A DNA stretch of 64,000 bases from Yuukianura sp. NJ FZ-2021 (lineage: Eukaryota). The DNA lies in assembly GCA_046563655.1 (NCBI GenBank), contig CM102285.1, positions 11,346,001-11,410,000 on the forward strand, read 5' to 3'. The notes under the pieces are model-generated. The model searched no databases, was not told where the DNA came from, and worked only from the letters and a program-made list of their open reading frames with translations. The position numbers and the translations under genes were made by a program. This document shows positions 1-47,461 of the stretch, piece after piece (the stretch's first letter is position 1; every line of letters starts with the position of its first letter).

Positions 1-3000
1 TTCTTGTTCTGAACAACTTTTTAGAAAATAGAAATTATTGTGTTTTTTATATTCCCTTTGAGAATGTTGGCTATCGAAATCCCACGTTGATATGTACAAC
101 GACAGAAGCGGATCTGTTGGCGCCGGAGTTATTTTTGAGCTTGGTTAAGCGACAACAAAAGTTTTACTTTTTAGGAATTACTTTCTCTGCTCTTTTTTCC
201 GCCGAATCTCTTACTGACAAAATATGGATTTTAGGGAGAAAACTTGTGAAATAAGTCACTCTCACAGACTCAATTACATTTTTACCGTACTGACTCATTT
301 TACGTAGAAAACGGAGTTCTTAACTTTCATTTTTCTCATTTTCAATCACTTTTCTTCTAGAAAAGTGGGAAACTTTCTATTGTAAATGTGTACCGGTCAC
401 GCGAACCCTATCCCACTGAACTGTTTTTCACCCTGTTTCCAAACAACCGTTTTTTGGTTTTGATTCTTTTTGACAAATTTTTTCCATCAAAACTTTTTCT
501 TTTATATTTGGGCCAATTTGTTTCTTCGTCAAAGTGAAAGAGTATTCTCAACCCTATGTCAGTCTCCGGCTATGTGTATCACTTTTTTACTTTTACTTTC
601 TCCAACTCCATAGCAATCGGTTTCTTTTGTGAGGGAATTGTAAAAGTTCTGAAAAAGAAGCCTTTATAGAAACTCTGGACGGATCCTTATTATTGGTATT
701 TTTTTGTTTGAGTTCAACCGTAATGCAACACTCATCTGTACTTAAAAGTAGTTGCTAAGCATAAAGCTCCAGTTACGTGACTATTTTTCCGGAAATTGTT
801 CTTTTGAATTGATATAAATCATACAATTAAGCGGAAAACTTTTCCTTTTTTAATATTATTTTATTATAGTTATACTAACGAGCAAAAGCGGCTTTTCTTT
901 CCCCTAAAACTTTTCTACGCGAAACGCACGCTGTTCCAAACGCACGGCGGAGCCTTTTACTTCTTTTTCGTTTGATCCGTTCGATTTCTGACTCACTCAA
1001 AAGATTGTTCAATTTCAAATTGAGAAAGTAAAGAGTAAAGAAAATCGGGTTCTTTCATGATACTCAATTTTCTGGATTTTTTTTTCTCTTCTGTGCTTTC
1101 TTCGCACTACCACTCTGGAATGGTTTGGAGAAAGTTGAAAGTTTCTTTCTCAATTCCCAATTTGTGTTCTGTGATACAAGAATCATTTGTAGTAATGATA
1201 TCATCATACAGTTACCAACAGAATCTTCACTCAAACTCAATTTCTCTTTTGAATATTATAGTAACTTACGCAGAAATCCTATTACGTACGGCTTTCTTTA
1301 AAGTTCCGCATCACTAACTTTTCTACACTCACCCTGTTAAACCTGTCTTTTTAGATTTGCGGTGCTCACAAGTCTCCGGCGTATGGCCAATGTTCCGTTA
1401 CTTATTTAAGCTAAGACGATAGATTGAACAGAATTGGAGTGTGTTGACAATTACTGAAACGCGAATACTAAAAGTTGGGATGTTGAGTTACGTTTTAAGG
1501 TTATTGGCTACACAAAGTTAAGCAAAAGCTTTTGAATTTAAGTTCACACGCTAATGCGTAAACTGTGCTTAATTTATTCAAGACTAAACTTAACTTACCT
1601 AGTTTCTTACGAGTCTTAACTAAGATCCCATATAAATCGAGTTGATGTTTTAAGAGGTTAGTCGCTACTTGATGTGAGTTGGTGTGGCCCATTAACTAAA
1701 ATGTGCCAGAACTTGAAAGTTTACCAAATAAAGACTATTTCATGTTACGAGTTGTTAACTAGGGGGCTGTTAATTCATTTATGAGGGAGAGAAAGCGGAA
1801 TAATGTCATCTTCTGCGACAGAGTTGAACACAGTTACTCCACTCCCATGTTATTGTCATTTCCGTAGGAGTCATGGTCTGGAGATGGGTGAAATTAATCC
1901 TTGGCACTTTGTGGGGACTTTTATTGGGTGAAAGCCATTTGTGAAGTGTGTTAGGTGAGTATCATGGGGAAAGTGCTAAATGGGTAGGCCTAATGTGGAA
2001 TAAGGTCACCTCTACCCACGTAGGCTAGGTGCAGAATCTGCTTTCTAATAAATTAGGGCCCGTTGGCCTTCGCGTGAGACATTTCGATTTGGATCTGGAA
2101 AGATATAAAGGAAGATTCAGCTTCTACTATCTATTCGGATGGTTCCATGGTGAGCACACTGTTAAAAAGAGGAAGCGGGGCCAGGAGAAAGCGGAAAGTT
2201 AAAGCGAGTGGAATGGAAAAGGAACGTCAGTTTTGTGTATCTCCATTTCTTTGTTAGGAAATGGTAGAAGAAGAATGGCGTAGGGTACGTATGATATGAC
2301 CTAACGTAAGCTCCTGCTTTCACCTTGCAGAAAGTCGGAGAAACCCTCGAGATCCATTCCGAGATCATCTAATGTTCCTTTCACCAGATAAATAAGTCCA
2401 TTATCAAACTAACTTTTGTCTTATAGTCCTCTCCTTTAGTGGTTCCCCGCTCTGCTTTGGCACTATTCCTGGCTTTCACTTCTACTAAAATTTGGAGTCG
2501 GAGGAGTTAACGGATCTTCTTTCTAAATTGATAGTTTAAAGGAATTATGACGAAATTTGATTTTTCAAGTCAGCAGATGTCGTTGCACAGATTTCGTATT
2601 TGATTTACAACTCTATTCTACTCTAGCTCAAAATTTTTTGCTAGGGATTTAGGAATTTGGCTCCGCTTTGTTAGATTAAGCTTAGGCAGCATATTAAAAA
2701 GCACAATTCTGTTCTACTTCTAACAAAAAATGTCAGGAAGTCGTTGGATAACGCCACAATTTCGACCAAAAGAGTTAAGATGTTATCCAATTTCTGAGTT
2801 CTGAATAATCCTTCCATGGAGTTCTAAAATTCAAAATTAAAGTTTTCAGATTACTTTTCAACTGTTAGAACCATCTTAAGATTCGTTGACTTCGACCTAG
2901 CACTTGGAGATTTCAGAAACCAATCTGCCTATCGTATTTTTTTAGCTTCTCATATTAATCTTAGCACGGTTAATCTATTAATCAACTTTTTAGGTAAGAC

Positions 3001-6000
3001 TAACTTTAAAATACTTATAGCGTCTGTTGCTTATGTTCGTAACAATCTGCCTTACCTGTACGTAAGTATTACGGTATAGTTAAAGGCTGTACAAGTATAT
3101 TGACCTCTTGACCTGGAATGTGGGAAATTTCCTAATGCGTCAATGTTATTGTAGTGTGTGTCACTCTCACCTTTAAAGTAACGACAAAAGAGTCAAAAAT
3201 TTTAAAGAAATTGTGACGCAAGTAGCCATTCCGGAAACCCTTAACGCTTCGCCGAACCTTTTTCTTTAAAATCCTTCCGCCTTCCTTTCCATATCTGCCT
3301 CTTAGCACTTATTCAACACAACCTGCTTTCTCCTTAGAAAAATGCTCCTCCTTTGTCCTTTGAAAAGAGTACTGTGAAAAATGAACAGTCTCCCCAATTT
3401 TGAAAACGTAAATTTCGTCACCGGAAGAGACATGCAGTTACTCAATGTCAACATTTTATTTATTTGCTTCTTGTGTGTAACGTGTTGAACATACTCCTTT
3501 TCCTCGTTTTTTTTGTAAACTCTATAAAATGGCATGGAGGACTTTGGGGAAAGCAGGACTGACCTTATGCACCCTGTGTGCCTTTGCCAAGGGAATTACA
3601 CTAAAAAAACTTTTACTACTTTTTTTTTCAGCGTTGCACCGTTCCATGGACATCAGCTGCTCTGGATGTTCTTACTTTACGGAGGAGTTCAAATCCAAAG
3701 TGCCCATAAGAGGCACTTCACCGGAAAAGTTTTACTGGGTTTTCCGGGTTTTGAAACATTGGAATACTTTTTATGCAGAGAGAAGGTTGGTCTAAGTTAC
3801 AGTTTTATGCAAAAACTCAATGGCCCTCAAAATAATTCGGCTAGCAACCGACCGCCGAATGTTGGACTACTAGTGAAAATTCAACCAGATTTAGAACGTG
3901 TCCGTCCTGCTTTCACGGACGGCACCCGTTTGTTTCGACTCATTTGCCCGCAAGCTCCGATGATCCCGTCATATACACTTTATTGCCGTTTTATTACAGG
4001 TCCACAAACCACACGTAAATCCTATTTCGGATTACCAGAGATGAAGCACATCCTAATTGGAATGAGTACAATAGGATCCATGAATGCCAGTGACCTCTAA
4101 AGCTCTTGAGGTCATGCCATGTCATCATCTTATTCACACTCTACTAACTTCGTTAAGGTCAGTACAAACTTCAAATCTTTTTTTCTAATGCAAAAAGTTT
4201 TCGCGTCTTTTTTCATTGCTTTCTCTTATGGAGAAAGCACAGTTTTCTGAAAAAGTATAGTTTTCTGACTCGAGTGACTAATTGTTAGTGGCCGCTATGG
4301 TTAAGGAGATAACTGACTGTTACTGACATATGCTTTTTACTGTTGAGGTAACGATTGCATGGTCAGAGGTCGTTCCATAATTTACAACCTCACACAGCCT
4401 ACACTGGCAGCATTTTACCAAAAGTAAATTGAATTCCTGTTTACAAGGTTTTCAACTTCACAGTGGTATCACGCAGGGTTCCGTCCAAAATTATCCGTTC
4501 AATCCACTACCCCTTCAGCTCCAGAACTGTTCAATTGTAAACTGAATTTCGAACAGTACTTTATACTGGCTGCCTCTTGCCAAAAAAAAATCTTTGATTC
4601 CTTCCTGTTGAATTATGCAAAAGGAAGCTACCCGTATATAATAATTCTCTTTCCGTTGAGCTCTTCTTACTCAATTCCTTTGATGTGCGCCCCACACCTC
4701 GATTCTTTGGCAGCGCTGGGCTTACCTTGTTCGGTGAAATCAAATCAATGTCAATTTCGTCTTCAATACGTGACACAAATTTCAATATGTGTTCAAAAGA
4801 AATTGACAGGCTTGCCAAAATGTTGCCAAAATGATAGATTGAAGTTCCCAGAAGTGTCCTTCCCTTCAACTGAGGTTAAAGTTTATTTCTAACGTCTCAA
4901 AGTTAGTATTCTACGAGGAGTTATAAAAATAGAAACTCTAATTAGGACTACAAATGGGAACTTAATTATAAACTTGTTTCGAACTTTTCGCTTTTTCAAC
5001 TCCATATTTCTTGTTTTTGTTTTTCTGAAAACTTTCTTCATTTCAAATGTTTATTTCATAAGGTGGGTTTGGTGGAGAAAGCAGAAGACGACAACAAAAG
5101 ACCAATTTGTCAATTTTAGCGTAGTTTTGTTGTTTGTATTACCTGAAATTAGATTTCTGTTCAATTAACTGGAGAATATTTGACGTCATCTTGTTCTAAA
5201 GTGTTTGCAGATATACCTAACATTCCCATCAGAGCTGGGGTTTCAAGTAGAGTTGTTATGAGGAATTTAGTATTTTCATCTGATGCATTCAGGCATCGAA
5301 GCTTGTTAAATTCTGGAACTCATTGAAACAGCCACGGACAATGGAAACCAGTTCCTCTCTCTCTCTATGTTGCTTCAAGTCCATCGATCAACACCATTTT
5401 GGCTCGTGAGACAAGAAACGGAACTTTCATGCTTCACCAACAATAGAATTTGAAGTGACAGGTAGTTGATTACATCCCATGTCAAAATCTCGGCTACGTT
5501 CGTCATCCACTTTGTTTCAGAAAAAATGGTGAGGTTCCAGAAACCACTATGTTTAGGGTAAAACTCTTTTAGAAAGTCAAATGATAATAGCAGAGGTCAG
5601 AATAACATAATGCAAAGGTAATGGACTTTCGCCGCAAGCTTACATTCCTCCTACATATATTCATTCAAATTTTCCGCTTTTCCGACTTTTCCTAAACCTA
5701 ATCCTGCGTGGTCAAGTGTCAAAGTCAATTAAGCCAATATCCTAGGGAGTGGAAAGGAAATTTCATTCGCTGTTCCTTCCGTAGCGTGTGTCATGAAAGT
5801 TAAACTTTTTGTGAGCTTTTTAGCCTAAAAAGTTTTAATCGCTGACTCGAGAAAGGTTTCTGAACTGTGAAAGTGGAACTGGAACGTAAACTCTTAAAAG
5901 CGTGATTTTTGAAAGTTTGACTTTTCTTTAAACTTTGTCTCTTCGCCGACTTCTGGGTCTTTAATAATATAGTTCCAATTCTCTCTTTGGTTTGGGCTTT

Positions 6001-32429: not shown

Positions 32430-34604
32430 ATGAAGTACCCACCCATTTTACGTCGATCAGTGCAGTTGTCACACTCCTTTCCTCAGCAGTTTGCCATCTC
32501 CAGAAATTATTCAAGTAGTACTGCTATTCTTACGAGTCACACATCACTACCGGTATATTCGGGTCAACGAAGGTCACTATTAAGATATCAACCCCAATAC
32601 GGATACTCATCACCTTTTGCGTTACTAACCTTGGCAAGATTCGAGTCCACGTCGGTTCCAGAAGTCAAAATAGAAGACTCGGTTCTAGGAGCGCTTGACG
32701 GAGCCTTCGGAGCACCCCATGTACATTCGACGCTTGGAGATGATGTCAGTAGAGCTACAACAGGCAGTAACGTTGATGCCCCTGTTGCGGAGGTCAAAGT
32801 TGAAGATGGAGTTCTAGGAGCCCTTGATGGTGCGTTCGGGGCGCCACACGTCCATTCGTCGATTGGAGATTTTCGGGCAGCAGCTGACTCCACGGGTAAG
32901 GATTTGTAGTTTTATAAGCGTAATAACTGAATAATTGGGTAATAGTAGCCTAACATTACTAATAATAAATTATAACATTACTAAATTCTGTTCTATATTT
33001 CAGCTGGAGTATTTGGACCGAAACTATCACTTAATATCCCTGAACCACCCGAAGTTTCTCCTACAATTGTAGAATCGGTTAACAAATTGGTGTTAAATTC
33101 AGCCGGAGAACCTACATTCGAGAGCCTTGGAATTGGAGGATGGACACCATCCGGAATGGTTCAACAATGTATGGAGTTCTTACACATTACGGTAGGGCTG
33201 CCGTGGTGGGGTGCCATTCTTGCAGGTTACCATAAATCTAAACTTTTATATTTCACTGGCGATTTGGACATCGTTACTTAGTAATCAAATCTTCAAATCA
33301 TAAGACCAATCTCTCTCTTTTACAGGTACGATTGTTGTCAGAACTTTAGTGTTCCCTCTTGTACTCAAAAGCCAACGGAACGCTGCGAAAATGCGGAACA
33401 ATTTGCCGGAAATGCAAGGCATTCAGCTAAAGTTGACCCAAGCCAAACAGAGTGGTGATCAGCTAATGGGTGAGTACAATTTAGCACATCTCATTTGAAT
33501 CTCCCAACCGTTGTTGGCAAGTTCTTTTAAAAAGCATTCCTCTCCTTCTAGTCGCAAAATATACCCATGACTTGATGGCGTTTATGAAAGAAAAGGACAT
33601 CAACCCACTGAAAAGTATGGTCGTACCATTGGCCATGGTAACTTTCTATACACCAATGACTTCTTAGGCAACTTCATTAAATCTTATTACATATTTAGAG
33701 GTACATTCTTCCTGCTATTTCAGGCTCCCGTATTCATCAGCTTTTTCTTTGGACTGAGAAAGATGGCAAATCTTCCGGTGGAAAGTATGCGCGAGGGTGG
33801 ATTGTTTTGGTTCACAGATCTTACGGTTATGGATCCCTATTATATTTTGCCGCTAATCACAAGTACGACGCTCCTAATTACTCTGGAGGTGAGAACAATT
33901 TTGAGAAGATCCATTACATCGTAACTGCTAAACTTGTGAAAGTAGTTTGAAGTTAAACTAATTCCTACAGGTTGGAGCTGATGGTGTCAGAGTGGATTCG
34001 GGTCCGCATAGTCAATTGATCAAGTATTTTACCAGAGCTATCCCTGTCATTATCTTCCCACTGACCATGAACTTTCCAGCGGTAAGTTTATAATTATCCT
34101 AGTGTTAGTAGTTATTCGGCGAACCGGAAATCCTGTCACCAGACACTATGACCTCAACTTTTTTGAATTTCCTTTAGATGTTCTAGTAATCTAGTACAAC
34201 TTTTTTTTCAGGCACTCCTTTGTTACTGGGTATCTACAAACGGAATCTCACTGATTCAAGTTAGTCTTCTCAAAATCCCAGCGATACGTGCAAAATTTGG
34301 AATCGATGCCGTCAAACATTATAACACCGAGGATTTGCCCATCAAGAAGAAAGGATTTATGGAGAGCGCAAAGGAGTGTAAGCCAAGCCTACCTAAAATT
34401 CATTCCAGTCTCTAATAAGACGAGCTCATACCTACCCAACTAATTTTTGTTTGCAATATTACAGCATGGAACAATGTTAAAACTTCTAAACAATTGGAAG
34501 AACGGGAGAGATACGACGAAATGACTTTTAAAAGAGCCGGACGAGGCCCGATTCCCAAAACTTTCAAGTATGACCCCACAAAGGTTCAGGCCAAGTCGAA
34601 GTAG
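32430..34604 (+). CDS. OXA1L: Mitochondrial inner membrane insertase OXA1L (YidC/Oxa1 family), 8 exons
   Basis: Arg/Ser-rich presequence-like N-terminus. Motifs [90 protein letters not shown], and C-terminal [19 protein letters not shown]. Confidence 0.93.
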
Positions 34605-35080: not shown

Positions 35081-37251
35081 ATGGGATTGCCTTTCTTACT
35101 TTTTGTGCTAATTTCCAGCACTTTTGGATCTCCAGCCCAACGAGGTTTGTGTGAAAATCATTATCTCCAGCTTAAAATCGTATTTTGGTTCAAAAATTAT
35201 AATTTGCCTATCTGCAGCTCCAGCGTGCGGTGAGACGCGACTGAATTTGAAAGATGGCGACCATGGATACTTCTCATCGCCTGGTTATCCCAGAAATTAC
35301 AGAGGCGGCGTAGAGTGTGAATATCGTTATGAGGTTAAGAAAGCAGCAGTAATGTAGTACCTTGCGCCTTGTGGTGAAAGTTAAGCAACTTTTGTTAATG
35401 CTTATGCGATTTTTTTCTCATAGGGAGCCCCTGGCACGGTCGTCCAAGCCACTGTATTTGACCTCAAAACACAAAATGCTCTGCTGACCGACATCTCTGA
35501 TTCTCTTTACGTTTCACTAAGTGGAAATTGGAACGACAGCCAACGGTAAGCCAATGAAAAAGTCTGAATTTGATCAAAACACAACAGAAGTGAATTTTGT
35601 GAACAGGTATTCTGGAGATTTGGCTCCAGTGACCCCGATGGTCTTGGTTTCAGACGGAAATACATTGGCGTTTAGATTCAGATCATCTAGATTTAGCGAA
35701 GGCAGCAAAGGATTTCGAATAGGCTACTTCGTTAGGGTAAGACGCTTGCACAATTTCAACTTGCAGTTAACCAGATCGGATCCAAAGAAAAGTGCTGAAT
35801 CTTTCAGGCAAGTACTTCTGGAAAACCTGCTTTGTCCGAACCTGCTCACGATATTTACGTCGGTAAGTTCAGTAATGATTAATCATAAAAGCAATTCTTG
35901 TAGCTTTCCCTAATCTGGTTGCTTTTGCTAACAGTGACTGTGTGCAACTACGTTCCTGTGGACACTCCGCAAACATTTCCGGAACAAGGCATCAGTCGTG
36001 TTACCGTGGAAGGAATTAACAGGACAAATCCAAATCCATTCTTAGTAGCTTTAGTTTTGGATGACAATCAGTTTTGCTCCGGAACCCTGATTAGTGATCG
36101 CCATGTCCTTACCAGTTCACACTGTACGCGCGGGTATGTACCAATATTTCTTTGAATTTAGCCAAGATCGTTTACATGCCACCATGTTCAAAAATAATTC
36201 CGGAGCTATAAACTTTCTTTGCAATTTCTAGGGTGAAGAAAGTGGACATGATTTTTGGAACTGACAATTTGATGTCCGAGGATGACGGAGTTCAGAAAAG
36301 AAGTGCCCCGGCTTCATCAATCACCCAGCATCCAAATTTTGACCCCTACACTGGTGAAAATGACATGAGCGTGATCACACTAGATAAACCTGTCGACGTA
36401 ACAGGTAACTCAGAGCTAACAAACAGAAAACGGTAGAAGTTCTTACGGATTGAACTGAACGAACTGAAAGAAAATTCTTACCTTCAACCTTTTCAATTTA
36501 GCTTTCGTTATTCCTGCAACTGTTCCAACCTGGTCATTGATGGGAACCACTTTCACTGGTTTCAAAGGCGACATTGTGGGCTGGGGAGACTCCAAAAGTA
36601 AGCCACACAGAGAAATAAACTGAAAACAAATACTAGACCAAGCAATAAAACTTGATACTTTGAATTTCGAAATTTAGGTGGAACAGTTTATAGTCAAGCC
36701 GGAAGAAAGTCACTGAACGTGTCCCCAAATGCTGCTTGTAGTGTGGGCAATCGAGGTCATACAGGACTTTCAATGTGTAGTCGAATGTCACCAGGTCTAA
36801 CTTGTCAGGTAACAACTCCAACGACTTTTACGTTATAACTTCAATTTGACAAATGAAAACTACTAAATTCCTTTTTCAGGCCGACTCAGGGAGCCCTATC
36901 GTCGCAAGTCGTGCTTACTGTAATGGACCAGTCAACCAAAACAACAATGGCGACAACGGAATCAACAACTCAGCTCAACATCCCTCAAGACCTCAGAAAC
37001 CAGTCAAACCAGGAGCAAAGCCAAACAGGCCAACCAAACCAAACAGACCAAACAGGCCTGACGATGATCTGAGGGATGACACTGAACCATTTTTAGCCGC
37101 ACCAGCCTTAACAAAGTACAAAGCCAATATTCTACTCGGATTGGTTTCTCACGGGTCTTGCGAGAAAGGATTTACATTCACACGAGTGACCTCTCAACTT
37201 GACTTTCTTTCACAATTCATAACGCTCCACAGTGACACGCCATACATTTGA
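35081..37251 (+). CDS. Secreted CUB-domain + trypsin-fold serine protease, copy 1 (His/Asp/Ser triad retained), ~10 exons
   Basis: Signal-like MGLPFLLFVLISSTFG. CUB motifs CGE..GYFSSPGYPRNY..ECEY and FRFRS..KGFRIGY. Protease motifs FCSGTLISDRHVLTSSHC, HPNFDPYTGENDMSVITL, VGWG, CQADSGSPIV and LLGLVSHGSC..FTRV..LDF. Confidence 0.85.
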
Positions 37252-37893: not shown

Positions 37894-40800
37894 ATGCTGA
37901 GACCATCACTAATTTTGGCAATTTCCTTAGGGATCTACTTTCACTATTTCGTTTTAGAAAGTGACGCTGTTTCCTTGCGTGCGAAACTGTGGAGTTCAAC
38001 AGAAGATGGGACGGATGCAACTCTTCCGGCTGCTTCTGATGCAAAAGGTAGGACATAACTTTCTCCATGGATAACTTTTAGCCGAAGAAAGTCAATCATA
38101 ACAGTCATGATTAGAAGTTAAGTCATTAACGTGTAAATTTCGAATTGACCTTAGTCACTCCACCTGTATGCGGTGGAACGCTTACTGGACTGAAGGCTGG
38201 CTCGAATGGTATCATTGAAAGCCCAAACTATCCTAACAAATATCCACGTGGAACAGAATGCGTTTGGACCCTAAAGGTATTTACAAACTGAAGCTTTCAC
38301 TTTCGTTAAAAATGCTCAGTTTTAACAAAACAAAACTAAAATACGAGCAAAAATATAACACAGACTTTGGATTTACTCAGGCTGAGCCCGGTGTTGCTAT
38401 CCATGCAACAGTATTTGATCTTAAGACTTACAGTGATCCCTTAACAGAAGTTTCCGATTCGCTCTACGTTTCACTTGTTGGACAATGGAACAATACTCAA
38501 CGGTCAGAAAAAAATTATTCCTTCATTGAATATCATAAAGAGAAAGCGATTTTTTTTTGAAAATCCGCATTTTAACCACCAAAGATTTTGAATTTAGCTT
38601 AGAATCAGTTTAAACTTTCACCAATTTTCTGAGAAAGAAAGAAAAGGAAAGCTAAATTTTCAAACAACCCTCCCAAGTAATAAGTAGCAACCTTTTAAAA
38701 AAACTTTGCAGATTTGCTGGAGACTTGACAGGGGTGACTCCATTTCCTTTGATTTCTGAAGCAAACGAATTTTTGATCAAGTTCAAGTCAAATGCAAAGG
38801 ACGGCAATGCTCGTGGCTTTCGTATGGGATACTACGTAAGGGCCCACTAATACTCTCCCTTGAACTTTCTCTTAAAATGTTCAACTTTCTCTAGAAATTT
38901 TGAAGTTTCTCTTGGAATTTTCAATCTTCTCCACTTTTGTCGTTTTAGGTTACGAGAAAAAAACCGGCCCTTACGGAACCAGCCAATCAAGTTATTGCAG
39001 GTTCATAGCAAACCAAACTCACTTTCCGTTAAATCAGAAAAATGTGAATCTTTTATGTCAAGAAATGTGAATTAAAAGTAAAACACTTTCTCTTTTAGTT
39101 TCTTGCAACTATCACTATGCTCCAGTACCAGCCATATTCCCAGAATCTGGCGGAGCCCTACGACTATATAAAGAAAGCCTAAAAAATCTACGCCAAATTC
39201 GTCGAGACAATCCAAATCCATTCCTCGTCGGTTTAGTGTTGGACGATAGTCAATTTTGCTCTGGAACACTTGTCAGTCATTACCATATTGTCACATCAGG
39301 CCATTGTCTCTACCAGTAAGTCCCCACTCATCATTCTTCCAATGGTAAAATTATGACCAAAAAATTGAATTCTAACAAAGAAGCTAAGTTTCCCATATTA
39401 CTGGAAACCAAAGAGCTTCCAAGAGAGCTAAATCCGGCTACAGCCAACGTATTAATGAGTACTCCAATCGATGACGAAATTTCCCCGTGACGCAACGACC
39501 AAAATCCTGTCACTAAAGATTTCTAAACAGTGATTTTTTTTTTGGCAGAGTCCAGAAAATAGACCTGGTGTTTGGAACAAGCGATTTAAACGTAGATGAT
39601 GCTGGAGTACAAAGACGCTCGGTTAATGCCTCATCAGTAATAATTCATCCAAAGTTTAATGCCAAAACAGGCGCAAATGACATCAGTATTATCACACTTA
39701 GCACTCCGGTGGAATACACAAGTAAAATTATAATTCGGAATTTCAAAAATTAAGAAAAACCACCCTAACCCAAATTTGTTTCCGCTGCAGGATTCGTCAG
39801 AGCAGCTCGACTTCCAACATGGAACTTACTAACTGCTCCCTTGGTGGGGCTAAATGTGGAGCTCAGTGGATGGGGCGAACATGGTCAGCATCTTTCGCTA
39901 CTTTGAATCCAACCCTTTTCATAACTAAAACTAAACTGCTAGTTTTGTGTATCAAACTTTCAGATGGAAATATTATTTCCCAAGCAAGTAGAAGCAAGCT
40001 GACATTGGCACCACAGTTGACCTGCAGGTCAACTCTACAAAAAGGGCTGAATGGAATGACAATGTGTGCGGCACCGAATGAGCAACTATGCACGGTATAT
40101 GTTGACCGACTTTAACTGACCTAAACTGGCTCAAAATTAGTTTTTAACCTTTACATACGAATTTAGTCGGATACTGGAAGTCCAGTGACAACAAGATGTC
40201 ACGACAACACTGGGGGCGGAAACGTACGTGCCTACCTACACGTTAACTTTAATATTACGTTAGTAATTAATATCAGTTTCTACTTTACTATTTCTAGGTG
40301 CAGGAGGTAAACACTGGCGAATTCATTATTACCAGACTGGTGAAAGTGAACTTTCACCACAGGTATGTCATTTAAGCGTGAATGTTTAAAATCTGTTTCA
40401 ATTATGATTCCAGGGACAAGGATCGCCAACGGTAAGGAAGCGTTTTTCTTTTTTCGAAAGTTCCTTAAAAAAAAAGATCGATTTGATGCTGGTTTTTAAC
40501 GGATATCTTTGACTGATTGTTGTCACTCTACCAATTCTACCATCATCACAGGTTGTAGAGGTGAGATTTTAGACTTTTGCAATTTCATTAATTTCACTCT
40601 ATAATTTTAAACTGAAATTCTACATTTACGTTCTAGCCCGATGGGAACGAACAAGTAAGAAATATATTTTTCGAGCACCCTCTGTATGTTAAACAGTGCA
40701 AATCTTGTCAAAAACTATGTTTTTTTAACTTTCAGGAATACGAGGTAAGAAATCTGACCAGAATGCTGAATAATAAGAATGACCAAATCGTGATGAATTT

Positions 40801-43020
40801 GAGTCTCCAACAAAATTAGTCTTTTTGTGAAGTAATTTTTCTAAACACATAATCGAAATTAGCGAAATTTTTAGCTACAAATTCTTGTACCTGAAGCAGA
40901 CTCAGCCTGTTTTGAGAGTGATAAATGATTTTCAGCCATTGGGGACAATAATTTCTTGGAAATAGGACATTGGAGAAACTATTTAGAGATAATTTGTTAA
41001 AATTCTTCCTTAAATTCTTAGGAAGAGTACGAGTATGAAGACGAAAATGAGGTAACCCAATACTTTCACTTTATCACATCAAAATGTAAATGGAAGCTGG
41101 TTCCCTTTTTCTTTAAATATATAATGTTGCTTGCTAAATGATGTGCAGGTTTTTAAAATTCGTCTGGCTAGAATTAAGTGTAACTGCGTTAACATAAGAA
41201 CCACTTTTTTCTCTCGAATATCTAGGGTGAAGATGAGTATGAAGATGAAGAGGAGGATGAGGAGGAAGATGAAGAAGAAGATGAGGAGGAAGATGAAGAG
41301 GAAGACGAAGAAGAAGATGAAGAAGAAGATGAGGAGGAAGATGAAGAAGAGGATGAGGAGGAAGATGAAGAGGAGGATGAGGAGGAAGATGAAGAAGAGG
41401 ACGAGGAAGAAGATGAGGAGGAGGACGAAGAAGAAGATGAGGAGGAAGATGAAGAAGAAGATGAGGAGGAGGACGAAGAAGAAGATGAGGAGGAAGATGA
41501 AGAAGAAGATGAGGAGGAGGACGAAGAAGAAGATGAGGAGGAAGATGAAGAAGAAGATGAGGAGGAGGACGAAGAAGAAGATGAGGAGGAAGATGAAGAA
41601 GAAGATGAGGAGGAAGACGAAGACGAAGGTGTAGATGAAGATGAGGATGAAGACGAAAGTGTAGATGAGGATGAGGATGAAGACGAAGGCGTGGATGAGG
41701 ATGAGGATGAAGACGAAGGTGTAGATGAGGATGAAGAAATTGATGAGGAGGAAATTCTCGAGGAAGAAGTTGTTGAACCAACTGAAGATGAAGAAGAAGA
41801 TGCTATTGAACAGGAAGATGAAAATGAGGTAAGGATGTTTCAAAATATGGGAACTAATTCAAAGTTGCGTCGCTTGTAGCAAAAGCTAGAATTCGCTCGT
41901 CCGAATAAGTAATTTTTAGCAAATTACAACACCGATCAGTTAGACCTAGTGAACACATTACACATTTAGTCTACAGTTTAATAGTCTACATTTACAAAAA
42001 TAACAGCAATCTTTCAGGCAGAAGATGTAAGCCAAGACGCAGATGAGGTAAGGAAAATCGTTCGAAATGCAGTGTCTGTAGGAAACTGAAAATAGGAAAT
42101 GTTGATGCGTATTTCTCACATCTTTAACGCATTTCCGTCTAATAATTTAATATTTCAATTTTACAAGGACGAAGACCTGAACGAAGATGAAGATGAAGAT
42201 GCGGTAAGAAAAAACGCAAAAATTCCCAATAAATTATATCTCTCTCCATGATCTAAGATTGAGTAAATGATACTCCAATTTTATAATTGCAATTTTTAAT
42301 CGACAGGATGAGGATGTGGACGAACAGGTAAACCCAGATACGAACACACGCACCCTAAACTTTACGTTTCCAAAAGAAAAGAACTTAAAAACCAGAAAAC
42401 CAATCATTTTGAAATCTAAGCCAATTATCTCATCAAAAATTTTTGTACAATCCTTCATGTCTTTCACTAGGCGGATGCCGATGAAGAAGAAGACGGCCTA
42501 ACCAACGTAAGTTTCTGTTTTGTCACTGCGTGTGAGACATACCTAAGCATTCATCTAACACAAAAACAAAGAATCAAAAGGAATTTCCCCACTTGATTTG
42601 TCATGTACTTTTTCTAAATATGGCCAAAAACAGCCTGTGACCGGAACGAAAGTTCCCAACGAAGCTGGACAAGGATCTAACCTAGCGTCGTCGGAGAAAG
42701 CAACTAAACCTACAAGCCAAACTTCACCCTCTTCTAGTCGACTCCATGTGCGCAAACTGTCTATAAGAACTTTCACCGCTAAGTCAATTAATTACAAGCA
42801 ACTTTAAAAAATCTATTTGGTGTGTCAATTTTAGGACCGTCGCGACAAGCACCAAAAAGCGTTGGATTACACAACCCGTCCAACAGGAAACGTTCTGTTG
42901 GGTATAATGTCTTTCGGCAATTGTAACCAAGGAATTGCTTTCACCAGGCTCATTGCACATCTCGACTTCATCAGAAGTACTATTGGGGAATGGTATAAAG
43001 AAACTGAGGAAACACACTAA
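37894..43020 (+). CDS. Secreted CUB + serine protease homologue, copy 2 (catalytic Ser->Thr), with a ~340 aa polyacidic insertion inside the protease domain; ~23 exons, ~790 aa
   Basis: Signal-like N-terminus. CUB motif CGG..GIIESPNYPNKYPRGTECVW. Protease motifs FCSGTLVSHYHIVTSGHC, HPKFNAKTGANDISIITL, SGWG and CTSDTGSPV. A run of phase-0 acidic exons follows (40298-42747). The last exon, 42835-43020, encodes NVLLGIMSFGNCNQGIAFTRLIAHLDFI, which aligns with the C-terminus of copy 1. Confidence 0.8.
41226..41828 (+). repeat. Coding minisatellite: (DEEE)n 12-nt units with a 48-nt higher-order repeat, then ~30-nt DEDEDEDE(G/S)V units; one 201-codon exon
   Basis: Purine-rich gatgaggaggaa/gatgaagaagaa/gacgaagaagaa array, bounded by a tctag acceptor (41225) and a gtaag donor (41829); 603 nt and open in the acidic frame. 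Confidence 0.92.
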
Positions 43021-43496: not shown

Positions 43497-46400
43497 TCAG
43501 TATGCGGATTCCTTAATTTCAACCGCCAACTTCTTTGCATACTCAGAGAAGTTCAGGGGATGAAGCTCGATGACGTTAGCCTTTCGCCTAGTCTCGTTCT
43601 GTTGTACAACAGATGGAAAATAACAATTCCCGTACAAATAGCGCAAGCAGTGTCCTACAATTACTAGCAAAGCAAAGTAGTAAGTGAAAATTCGACTTAC
43701 GTTGAATGTTTCCACCTTGGATTTGAACTTGGCAATATAGCTCCGGAATAGTGCGTTCTTGATAATTGCATCGAACTCATCTGGATGCTCTTTGTGCATG
43801 GGTCCAATCACATCAGACGGTTTTCCAAGCAACGTTTCCGCAGTGTCCTGGAAGCAAGTTGCCCAAACATTCCCAGAAAAGTCGGCAAAACTAACCTGCA
43901 GAAATGATAAATTAAGTCCAATTATTAGACAAGCAAGCATTCAATTGTTATCGTCGTGTTCTCCCACTATAGCCGGTTTGCCTTTTTATACTTACGGAAA
44001 GCATCATTCTCCAGTTGAAACTTTGATGGGCCATGTTACACTTCTCGCACTTGTATGATCCGTCGCCCAAGTCAATCACCTGTCAATGTCAATCATCCAC
44101 GTTTATAGGCGTTTTAGTGGATGTGTAATCCAACTCGGTTCCACTCCATTTCATCGAATGAAGAACTGTGAAGCGAATTACTGCGAAAGGTACTTTACTT
44201 CGGACGCTAATACGAATCGAATTAAATGCAAAGTAAGTTTCGCAGTAATTCGGTTCGGTTCGATAAAATGGCGTGCCATCATGAAACTCTGATGAGTTGT
44301 AATTTTTAATATAACATGTATCGATGTTTATCTGTTCACCTTTTTGTTGCAATTTTGTATGGGACAAGCCATGTAAGCAGGATTCTCTCTTCGGATGGAC
44401 ATAACAGTGACTTTTGACATGAAGAAGTCACCCTTCTCAGAGTCAGCTACATCTGAAATTATTGATTCCTGCAACACTTTCCATGGAGTCAGCACTGCAG
44501 AAGCAAAGGAAAGTATTAGTATTACGCATCAAAGAAGATTCGGATTCGAAATATTTTGGAAGAGTTAGTTCAGTGGTACCGTTTCCAGCTCCTGAAGAAA
44601 GGCTTTTGCTTTCAGCATACCTTCCTTCGTTATCGAACCATCCTCGTAAGATGTGGGCTTCAGAAATGTCAGGGTTCACCTACTCAGTAAGGATATTTCA
44701 TTAAATTCACTAACTTACTCGACTTAAAACGAATAAAAACTGTAACGAATTACATGAAAACCAGAGGACGAAGATGAGAGATTTTTTCCATTGTAGTCTC
44801 CCACCTTTGCACCCTTGACGGCGATCACAGGCTGGGAGTCATCACAAAATTCCTCTGCTTGTTTGCCCCACAATGTAAGAGCAATCTAAGTAATTAAAAA
44901 AAAGCTTTGGTTAAATAAAGTACACATTTCCATTTCGGATTCATGCATACCTCTCTATTCGATCTGTCAACAAGGATCAGTTCCCTTTTCGTCATTTCTT
45001 TGCCCGCACGCGACGTAAACGTGGATAGTTCGCCTTTCACTTTGCAAATTCCAATGACATCTAAAAACAAAACCAAAGAGAACTTCCTCAGAAAAGTGGC
45101 TATGAAATGCCTTTGCCAACAAACATGTGAATCAACTGGGATAATTGCAAACTTACCAATAATCGAATCCTTTTCAAGCTGCTCAATCCTTGCGATTTCC
45201 ACGAAATTGTATGTAGCGGTGGGAATTTCTGAAGCTCCATCGTTGCAAGGAATTACTTGTGTTTCGTTCCCCATACTTAGTTCGTAGTCATGTGACAGTT
45301 TATTGAATTGCCGGTTTGCAGGTTTGATTTGAAAATTCTTGATGATGTAAATGCTCCCAACCTGATGTACGACAGGAATCGAATAAATATTATAAATTAC
45401 ATTCCATTTCTCCGGCAATGGTACAACACAGGAGAGGTCATGTTAGGAATTGGGGGAAAAATGAAATTCATATCGCTTACCTCGAGCAATTCGTAATACT
45501 GGTCCACCGCAGTATTGAAGCCAGTCATTCGAACTTCGCCGCTTTCGTCTAGCAGTTCGAAACTAAAAAGCTTTCCCTCGCCTTTGGCATTGGACCAAGT
45601 GCGGATGTCTCCCTTGTTAGTAACACGAGCACGAATAGTACAGCGGCTAAAGACAAACAAAGTGGTGATACTCGTTCCCGTAAGATAAAACATCAATGGG
45701 TTTAGAAAAGTAACCTAAACTAACCTGGTGTAAGGATTCAAATCACGAATTGGTACAATTGGTCCAGAAGAGATGTCGGGTAAAGCCGCGGGTGGGTTTG
45801 ATGGTTTATCACCATAGAATCCACCACCACCACCACCACGATTCCCCGGTTGGGCTACAAACGGAATTCAGACCGTAGATTTGATTTCCGTGCTTTAATA
45901 ATGGCCTACGGTTTATAGGAACCGGATTATCATCGGTAACTCACCTTGTGCAGTTCCAGAAGGAGTCGGGTTGCTGGGATAGTTACCAGCTCCATTACTA
46001 GCGGGACGTGGCGCAGCCGACCTAATGCTGGTTGCTACCCCTACTCCCGCTGAAGCTTCAGTCCATTGAGCAGGATTCCCAATTTTATTCGGACCTCCTT
46101 TTGCCAAAATTGTCAATTCCAAGATGATCAACACACGCCTGAAAGTTCGAAAACATTAATTTAAGCGATGATTTTTAATTGGTTTGACAAACTTGAATCA
46201 AAATTTCAAAATTATCACTTGTTGGTGACGAAGTTTGAAACAACTTTGTCAGCCCGTATGATACAGTTGTTGTCAATCTTTCCTTCGGGGATCATGTAGT
46301 TCAACTGAGTTGCCAACATGGCGTAATTGTGTGAATGTACTCCATCGGATATGTTCACGCGGTATCTATCAGCTCCACCTTGACCGGGAATCTTCTTGTA

Positions 46401-46931
46401 GCCCTACAAATAAAAAAACGTGATATCAAACTAACCCCACCATGATGTTTTCAATGTCAGCAATCCAGTATTTAGAAATTGTTAAATTACCAAAACTTGC
46501 AACGTTGGGCTGGTTACTTCGATGCCTTGCAATAACTTCTACAAGAAAAATACGAAAATACGATTTAGTACTCACTCGTCCGCCTTTCCATCGTATATTG
46601 ACAATATAATATTGTCGTCGGACAGTCACTATACGGCATCAACAGTTCGGTTTCAGTAGAACCGGTAGGCATTACTAATTGATTCAACAAAACTACGAAG
46701 GGAAAAACTGAGACCTATACGTCAGGCATAGTGACAAACACGAACTACCGGTTCGGCATCGGCTAGTGGCAAATGGGGCTTAGTTAGTATGAGTTCTTGA
46801 AAACATGTTCCAGTTTTACGAACCAAACGAACCGAACCAATGACTAGACTATGCCAAAGTTAAATAGTTTTATTAATCGACCGGAAGGAAGTACTTACCC
46901 CAACAGCACCAGGCGTCAAAGTGAACGACAT
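43497..46931 (-). CDS. RPA1: Replication protein A 70 kDa subunit, multi-exon
   Basis: [10 protein letters not shown] start; [78 protein letters not shown]; zinc finger [40 protein letters not shown]. Confidence 0.96.
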
Positions 46932-47461
46932 TCCGACACACTAACGTATCGTATTCCAATCTGACTTATTCCAATAAGCGGACGTTGATGAATGATGAAG
47001 ATAATAATGTTGAGAATTAGACCCTGCAAACTGAAAAAGGAAACCGAGTTAACATTAGCGGTGTGCGTGTGGTGTGGATTGTTACGGAATGGCTACAGAC
47101 AAATGATGATAGGTGATAGGTTTTTATAAACTACCAAAATTAAAATAACAAAACGAGGAATGGTTCGATGGACTGGAAACTGGAAATGGATAGAAACTTA
47201 CCGGAGTCCAACGTTTAGTGTCAACGTCGCGTTTGAACTTGTAACAGCAAGGTCAAGATGACGACGATACGACGACGATGAAGAAAAACCAAGAGACACA
47301 CACAAACGAATAGTAAACTGTCACAACACAAAACAAAAATCACAAACGTCACGTCACGGTCACATCAAAAGAAAGAGACACAGAACACAGAGGGAAGAAG
47401 CGGCAGGCAGAGGAGCAGGCGAGAGGCGACGAAAAGTATTTTGCGCGCTTTTCCATTTCGT

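Follow-up and report, generated by a model that had tools for sequence, protein, structure and literature searches.

The locus and its predicted gene model

The 64,000-nucleotide stretch of Yuukianura sp. NJ FZ-2021 DNA analyzed here (positions 11,346,001 to 11,410,000 of the forward strand of contig CM102285.1, assembly GCA_046563655.1; hereafter the window) is eukaryotic in character, with a GC content of ~38% and short introns. At 37894-43020 on its plus strand lies what, on balance, we take to be a single gene, predicted to encode a secreted protein in which one CUB domain is combined with a chymotrypsin-fold domain bearing an enlarged loop. An earlier reading of the same DNA (the original prediction) had described it as a secreted CUB pseudo-protease whose trypsin fold is split by a polyacidic insertion of ~340 residues. 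It had placed the exon with the catalytic motif at 40167-40223, an exon of 201 nearly pure Asp/Glu codons behind it and the exon closing the fold at 42835-43020, and all three are indeed found at these places.

The first exon (37894-38047) opens with an ATG and encodes a hydrophobic, signal-like N-terminus; its reading frame and donor were read from the sequence, and the signal peptide was judged by eye, with no predictor. It is followed by three CUB exons (38155-38276, 38381-38502 and 38712-38835), delimited by their exon borders and by matches to Pfam CUB (PF00431), one of 31.0 bits on 38130-38288 (cut-off 21.4) and a weak one of 12.7 bits on 38713-38841, in the C-terminal part. A linker exon (38949-39000) with canonical borders, a similar version of which is present in the tandem paralog described below, leads from the CUB to the protease domain. 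Protease exon A (39099-39315), which can be aligned with P0026, the nearest annotated relative, lacks a canonical activation N-terminus and carries the His57-type motif TSGHC; the match to Pfam Trypsin (PF00089; 25.9 bits on 39185-39316, cut-off 20.6) corresponds to the N-terminal barrel with this motif. Exon B (39549-39721), with the Asp102-type motif NDIS, matches the same profile with 25.5 bits on 39550-39720 and shows 24 invariant columns among five relatives, NDIS being invariant in all five. The next two protease exons, C (39791-39883) and D (39964-40094), each gave no Pfam match when taken alone, and are retained with 87% and 81% identity in a metagenomic relative (locus L004, see below). 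Exon E (40167-40223; borders ag and gtacgt, phase 0 at both ends) encodes SDTGSP, with a threonine at the Ser195 position, and then a cysteine. The last exon (42835-43020; acceptor ttttag, phase 0) would supply the return strand, a Cys220-type cysteine and the C-terminal helix; it ends in a TAA stop and aligns with the C-terminus of the paralog and with P0001 and P0026 across 16 invariant columns that include the cysteine. Thus far the Pfam matches and the signal-like N-terminus bear out the domain composition originally proposed, and the acidic exons described next fall exactly between the strand with the Ser195 motif and the return strand. The nine secure introns of the gene measure 69-233 nt.

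Between exon E and the last exon lie 2611 nt, in which we identified 11 candidate exons, and possibly a twelfth, that are of phase 0, stay open in the frame set by position 40223 and bridge the two halves of the fold. The 11 segments have AG and GT(A/G)A borders and lengths that are multiples of three, ten of them being 9-36 nt long and one 603 nt. The series begins with six mini-exon candidates with AG/GT borders (40298-40306, 40414-40431, 40552-40560, 40637-40654, 40736-40744 and 41022-41051, all on the plus strand), the first five of which (40298-40744) are not strongly acidic. Then comes the large acidic exon (41226-41828; borders ag and gtaagg), whose 201 codons specify 128 Glu and 52 Asp (180/201 acidic) and include a (DEEE) x 31 run; it is a tandem repeat with a period of 24 or 48 nt, with entropies of 0.35, 0.56 and 1.80 bits at the three codon positions. 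Four further phase-0 mini-exon candidates, these being acidic, lie at 42018-42047, 42168-42203, 42307-42327 and 42471-42506, again with AG/GT borders. The optional twelfth exon (42634-42747) is Pro/Ser/Thr-rich and ends in a weak GTGCGC donor; a Pro/Gly-rich exon is found at the same relative place in another metagenomic relative (L001). If its donor is not used, the frame continues to a stop at 42805-42807.

In the model so assembled all borders are AG/GT, the translation is free of stops and the implied introns, computed from the exon coordinates, are 74-277 nt long. The candidate exons cover 819 nt of the gap, or 933 nt with the optional one. The frame can be followed through the gap as originally described, but of what had been called ~2.6 kb of acidic exons only these segments are exon candidates, the first five of them not strongly acidic. 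With all 12 segments the predicted product has ~787-788 aa, a pI of 4.05 and a charge of -213; this length was computed with the optional exon ending at 42750, and the GT donor requires 42747, which is one codon fewer. Without the twelfth exon the product is 749 aa long. Relative to a direct splice from 40223 to 42835 the full model is longer by ~311 residues, the spacing from motif to motif becomes ~350, and 225 of the 359 residues between the two motifs are Asp or Glu; these figures correct the ~340 residues of the original prediction. An origin of the mini-exon array through recent tandem duplication of intron-plus-exon units was considered and rejected, since 40224-41225 contains no families of direct repeats and 41829-42834 a single 19-nt pair.

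As for the surroundings, the minus-strand neighbor downstream (43497-46940) is RPA1, the replication protein A large subunit, with Pfam Rep-A_N, REPA_OB_2 and Rep_fac-A_C matches. Farther upstream, a plus-strand open reading frame (ORF; 33571-33921) has a weak match to 60KD_IMP (Oxa1/YidC-type) of 20.5 bits, under the cut-off of 35. A search of the whole window with Rfam gave no matches.

A tandem paralog, metagenomic relatives and loop length across the family

Directly upstream of the polyacidic gene, on the same strand, lies a paralog of 485 aa (gene 1; 35081-37251), with a signal, CUB and trypsin-type domains and 40% identity to the direct-splice model of its neighbor. Its last exon (36880-37251) is a single one and encodes, in succession, ADSGSP, a 77-residue loop (net charge +5) enriched in Pro, Asn, Lys and Arg, and the C-terminal piece. 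As this loop is contained in one exon, gene 1 shows that this genome has a long low-complexity loop at this very hairpin irrespective of any assumption on splicing.

Scanning metagenomes with a last-exon profile yielded five loci. In L004 the same pair of genes occurs in the same order, and the exon with ADSGSP is followed by a series of very small exon-like blocks, of phase 0 and flanked by good splice sites, and then by a large acidic exon that runs off the end of the contig. The L001 contig opens inside an acidic exon, after which come mini-exons, a 204-codon Asn/Glu/Pro exon, a three-codon exon, the Pro/Gly-rich exon and the last exon. In both L001 and L003 RPA1 lies downstream on the minus strand in the same order as in the window, and because of this common gene order their last exons are positional orthologs of 42835-43020. 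In L003 a single frame begins at an acceptor (145|146), covers an acidic stretch and stays open into the C-terminal part of the trypsin domain, and the GC content changes from 0.26 upstream to 0.50 within it. This ORF gave no Pfam match; as read from its sequence, it argues more directly than any other observation that acidic sequence and C-terminal piece would form one coding unit. Finally, in L002 an acidic exon of 17 codons precedes the last exon at a distance of 310 nt. Acidic exons are accordingly kept between the same two halves in L004, L001 and L003, which supports the original prediction; the loop expansion is clade-wide and not unique to the gene in the window.

At the nucleotide level the introns of the window cannot be aligned with those of L004 and L001 except for short islands. 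The best of these lie at proposed mini-exon donors. One matches window 42318-42331 to L001 1216-1229 (14/14 nt, E 0.006); another, of 10 nt (GCAGGAGGTA), is shared by window 40300-40309 and L004 6911-6920 within otherwise unalignable introns. There is no AG nine bases upstream of this island in L004; in both species the first mini-exon may therefore measure just 3 nt (GAG), unless the island serves another purpose. The second large exon of L001 (522-1133), the 204-codon one, is a repeat rich in Asn, Glu, Pro and Ser and differs from the (DEEE)n of the window; therefore the repeat sequence appears to turn over quickly while its acidic character stays. In L004 the region between the gene 1-like and the polyacidic gene-like genes (2714-3760) holds a degenerate partial copy, in which an ORF at 2714-2899 resembles the first exon and a stretch at 3465-3759, split over three frames, resembles the last; the window has just 640 bp at that place.

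Close full-length relatives were not found in the protein collections. A word-based search with the last exon gave one match among 3 candidates and an exon-B profile search one among 1696, in each case a metagenome ORF fragment. A HMMER search of representatives returned 139 matches, the close ones being fragments of 61-114 aa and the long ones at the top multi-domain, polyserase-like proteins; a motif scan of these 139 revealed no true long loop, all five spacings above 40 residues reaching into a second domain. In 261 fetched proteins the spacing from the Ser195 motif to that of the return strand was measured for 228 motif pairs, and in 222 of them it amounts to 10-24 residues, in keeping with the premise of the original prediction that this loop is short in ordinary family members. 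Six spacings are of at least 28 residues, and among these the loop is truly expanded only in P0026 (48) and in the metagenome protein P0143 (65), the other four being likely cases of mispaired motifs in multi-domain proteins, as judged from the printed strings.

The nearest annotated relative, P0026, is an uncharacterized CUB + Trypsin protein of the springtail Allacma fusca (CAG7819783.1 / A0A8J2LCG9), with 32% identity over 250 aa. Its AlphaFold2 model, built from a 45-sequence alignment, has a mean pLDDT of 75.6, with values of ~85-97 in the protease domain, and places the loop (pLDDT ~50-66 in 10-residue blocks) between strands at 341-347 and 379-389. The best structural match of the model is the crab collagenase 1azz_A (TM 0.92 on target, 32% identity). 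In P0143 the Pfam Trypsin match follows the profile (220 positions) as far as position 186 and breaks off at the loop; a split match of the kind originally foreseen for the spliced protein is thus seen in this relative. Since P0026 and P0143 are expanded while 222 of the 228 spacings are short, loop expansion at this turn characterizes a small, unstudied clade, of which the gene in the window is the extreme member. All clade members have a cysteine near the start of the loop (window 40192-40200; near 36920 in gene 1; in the P0026 and P0143 loops), and a second conserved cysteine occurs in the linker ahead of the protease domain, in a CNY-type motif found in the two window genes and P0002. These two cysteines may form a clade-specific disulfide.

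The candidate polyacidic exons and alternative readings

Defining a candidate exon as a phase-0 AG...GTRA segment yields 573 such candidates in the window, 304 on the plus and 269 on the minus strand. Only six of these are acidic (at least 7 aa and at least 50% Asp/Glu), and all six lie at 41022-42506 on the plus strand, with none on the minus strand. Within the (DEEE) x 31 run of 124 codons the first position is G in 124/124 and the second A in 124/124, while the third is T or C only in the Asp codons (25 and 6) and A or G only in the Glu codons (53 and 40); the run comprises eight unit variants of 12 nt, and the differences among the units are all synonymous. Taking these patterns together with the layout seen in the relatives, we consider it probable that the polyacidic loop is real in at least some transcripts.

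Several observations weigh against this reading. The splicing of the model is read from genomic sequence alone; the direct splice from 40223 to 42835 is also in frame, giving a product of 476 aa and pI 8.0; the last exon on its own has no Pfam Trypsin match, and the donor of the optional exon is weak. Exons of 9 nt are hard to recognize, and the mini-exon peptides differ between the window and L004. The acidic repeats likewise vary by species, being (DEEE)n in the window and Glu/Asn-rich or Asn/Glu/Pro-rich in the relatives, which is a weak point, and L004 and L001 are separate contigs broken inside the repeat, such that the continuity of the relative's gene is itself an inference. The synonymous-only pattern rests on few independent mutations, the units having been copied from each other. 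Moreover, the repeat is also open in minus-strand frames, including a poly-Ser one, and therefore open frames and three-base periodicity alone are no proof of the plus-strand reading.

Among the alternatives, the one that survives best is that the acidic exons are cassettes and that the main product is the short 476-aa form, made by joining 40223 to 42835 directly or with a few mini-exons, the polyacidic form being minor or tissue-specific. Very small exons are often alternative, all the inserted exons are of phase 0 at both ends, so that any subset could be skipped without a frameshift, and the direct junction keeps the frame. Exon-phase symmetry has been treated in connection with protein disorder (PMC3632108). 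On the other side, the large acidic exon has strong borders, and acidic exons are kept in three relatives, which argues for their use. We hold it unlikely that the cassette form accounts for the main product.

Less probable again, and in our view doubtful, is that 40224-42834 constitutes one 2.6-kb intron, with the GAR/GAY tract an expanded non-coding repeat and the splice-like sites fortuitous. This would be in line with the in-frame direct splice, with the tandem period of 24 or 48 nt and with a tract that is open on both strands. However, it leaves the clustering of all six acidic candidates out of 573 in this one gap to coincidence, and at 2611 nt such an intron would exceed any other intron of both paralogs more than 10 times. 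Acidic exon-like blocks also recur in L004, L001, L002 and L003 while the introns are unalignable, the differences between repeat units are synonymous throughout, and in L003 the acidic stretch shares one open frame with the C-terminal piece.

It is more improbable still that the acidic exons belong to a separate transcript, be it a nested gene on the same strand or a truncated form that ends at 42805, without the strands of the C-terminal barrel. The 42634 exon does stay open up to the stop at 42805-42807 if its weak donor is left unused. Yet reading the sequence identified no exon with a start codon and no poly(A) signal for a nested gene, the first acidic exons have acceptors and no ATG, the L003 frame unites acidic sequence and C-terminal piece, and the clade has an in-exon loop expansion at exactly this site. 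Finally, that the repeat is a poly-serine exon of the minus strand can practically be dismissed: the frame 41839-41225 is open for 205 codons, mostly Ser, with the variable base at its third codon position, but there is no AG or GT at its borders on that strand while those on the plus strand are canonical, the flanking acidic mini-exons have splice sites on the plus strand only, and the strict GAY-GAR-GAR-GAR order is unexpected for poly-Ser.

Catalytic state, proposed role and known systems

The S1 consensus comprises a GDSGGP-type nucleophile motif and an IVGG-type N-terminus. In the polyacidic gene the His and Asp motifs are present, and the Ser195 site has the threonine of SDTGSP in place of the GDSGGP-type serine; by sequence it fits the class of serine protease homologs (SPHs), i.e. 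S1 folds with a replaced catalytic residue. An IVGG-type activation N-terminus is not found at the aligned place in either window gene or in L004, and is present in P0026 and P0143. The serine, as ADSGSP, is kept in gene 1 and in the L004 ortholog, and from the latter it follows that the loss of the nucleophile is recent and limited to this species. Threonine is generally regarded as a poor substitute for Ser195, as a preprint (10.64898/2026.10.13.758922) also indicates. The label of pseudo-protease given in the original prediction is thus plausible, as far as the sequence goes, for this species, in view of the threonine and the absent activation N-terminus, but with the His and Asp present and the serine retained in L004 it does not extend to the whole family, for which the idea of a non-catalytic scaffold is weakened. 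Whether the protein of the window is catalytic or not appears to us evenly poised.

In the architecture that we favor, the hairpin turn of the C-terminal barrel between the strand after residue 195 and the 214-216 strand would be enlarged to ~350 residues, encoded by the 11-12 symmetric phase-0 exons; this is where the topology of chymotrypsin and the model of P0026 would place the insertion. The mature protein would then have ~750-790 aa and a net charge near -213. Cysteines of the Cys191 and Cys220 types would bracket the base of the loop and allow the fold to close beneath it; the polyanion would therefore be suspended from an intact fold, in the form of a disordered and closed lariat. With ~225 acidic residues the loop is expected from its composition to be disordered and strongly hydrated. 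Given the threonine at position 195 and the lack of a canonical activation N-terminus, we infer that the protein acts mainly as a binding scaffold that would display this hydrated polyanion outside the cell. As every inserted exon is of phase 0, shorter isoforms are possible.

With regard to function, we tentatively suggest that the polyanion binds cations or polycations, in which case it would take up Ca2+ or other cations with low affinity and high capacity, or else would engage polycationic partners. The original prediction had named Ca2+ or mineral binding, a glue or coacervate component and a decoy for cationic peptides as roles that the protein may have. The basic, Pro-rich loop of gene 1 is, speculatively, one possible electrostatic partner. 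A further, rather improbable, elaboration is that the two loops, carrying opposite charges on the same CUB-trypsin hairpin, act as an extracellular electrostatic pair, forming a complex coacervate or glue or a cation-loaded matrix, in which exon skipping would tune the dose of charge. Were that so, it would be a novel route by which an enzyme fold becomes a platform displaying low-complexity polymers. Even apart from the pairing, if the polyacidic architecture is real it would show to an extreme degree that a globular enzyme fold can tolerate and display, in a hairpin turn with a conserved disulfide at its base, a disordered polymer longer than the fold itself. The two neighboring paralogs and their relatives would then offer a compact natural system for the origin and diversification of low-complexity loops, by way of symmetric mini-exons and of repeats that turn over from (DEEE)n to Asn/Glu/Pro, and would also inform on the change from protease to non-catalytic scaffold and on the role of secreted polyanions in small soil arthropods. 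Gene predictors are likely to split or truncate genes of this kind, and the family is probably under-annotated.

Among known proteins the closest in construction are P0026 and P0143, which share the CUB and Trypsin Pfam domains and the expanded loop at the same hairpin (48 and 65 residues) and, in the case of P0026, a C-terminal FTRL...DFI-type motif. Unlike the gene in the window they keep the IVGG site and the Ser195 motif, and their loops, which are not polyacidic, are shorter by a factor of 5-8. Of the named families, the decapod CUB-serine proteases (Csp of Panulirus argus; P0225 of Penaeus vannamei) come closest, having the same secreted CUB + S1 architecture. Csp is reported from the secretory cells of epidermal glands, the aesthetasc tegumental glands, with a presumed release onto the cuticle (PMC4013018). 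P0225, however, has IVGG, GDSGGP and a short loop, and its identity to the protein of the window is just 24% in the protease part and 28% in the CUB domain; at these values, and with neither the triad nor the activation site intact, the protein of the window does not qualify as an ortholog or close relative of Csp. The crab enzyme matched by the P0026 model, brachyurin or fiddler-crab collagenase (1azz_A), is an active digestive enzyme of 226 residues, without a CUB domain and without an insertion in the loop.

Arthropod SPHs such as scarface and spheroide are comparable in that they are reported to have a trypsin fold with a replaced catalytic residue and a non-proteolytic action. Known SPHs differ in that they are usually CLIP-domain proteins, and the L004 ortholog still has the serine. 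In terms of composition, the acidic loop resembles, and might work like, the Asp-rich shell-matrix proteins and calsequestrin, in which long Asp/Glu tracts bind Ca2+ with high capacity and low affinity; in these proteins the acidic tract makes up the whole protein or a tail instead of a loop of an enzyme fold, and there is no relation in sequence or fold. The open-access papers searched contained no description of a long (acidic) insertion within an S1 fold, SPHs included, and none of a CUB-domain serine protease of Collembola. Since globular domains are generally known to accommodate low-complexity insertions in their loops, the points of interest of this gene are the size and charge of its loop, its construction from mini-exons and the oppositely charged paralog beside it.

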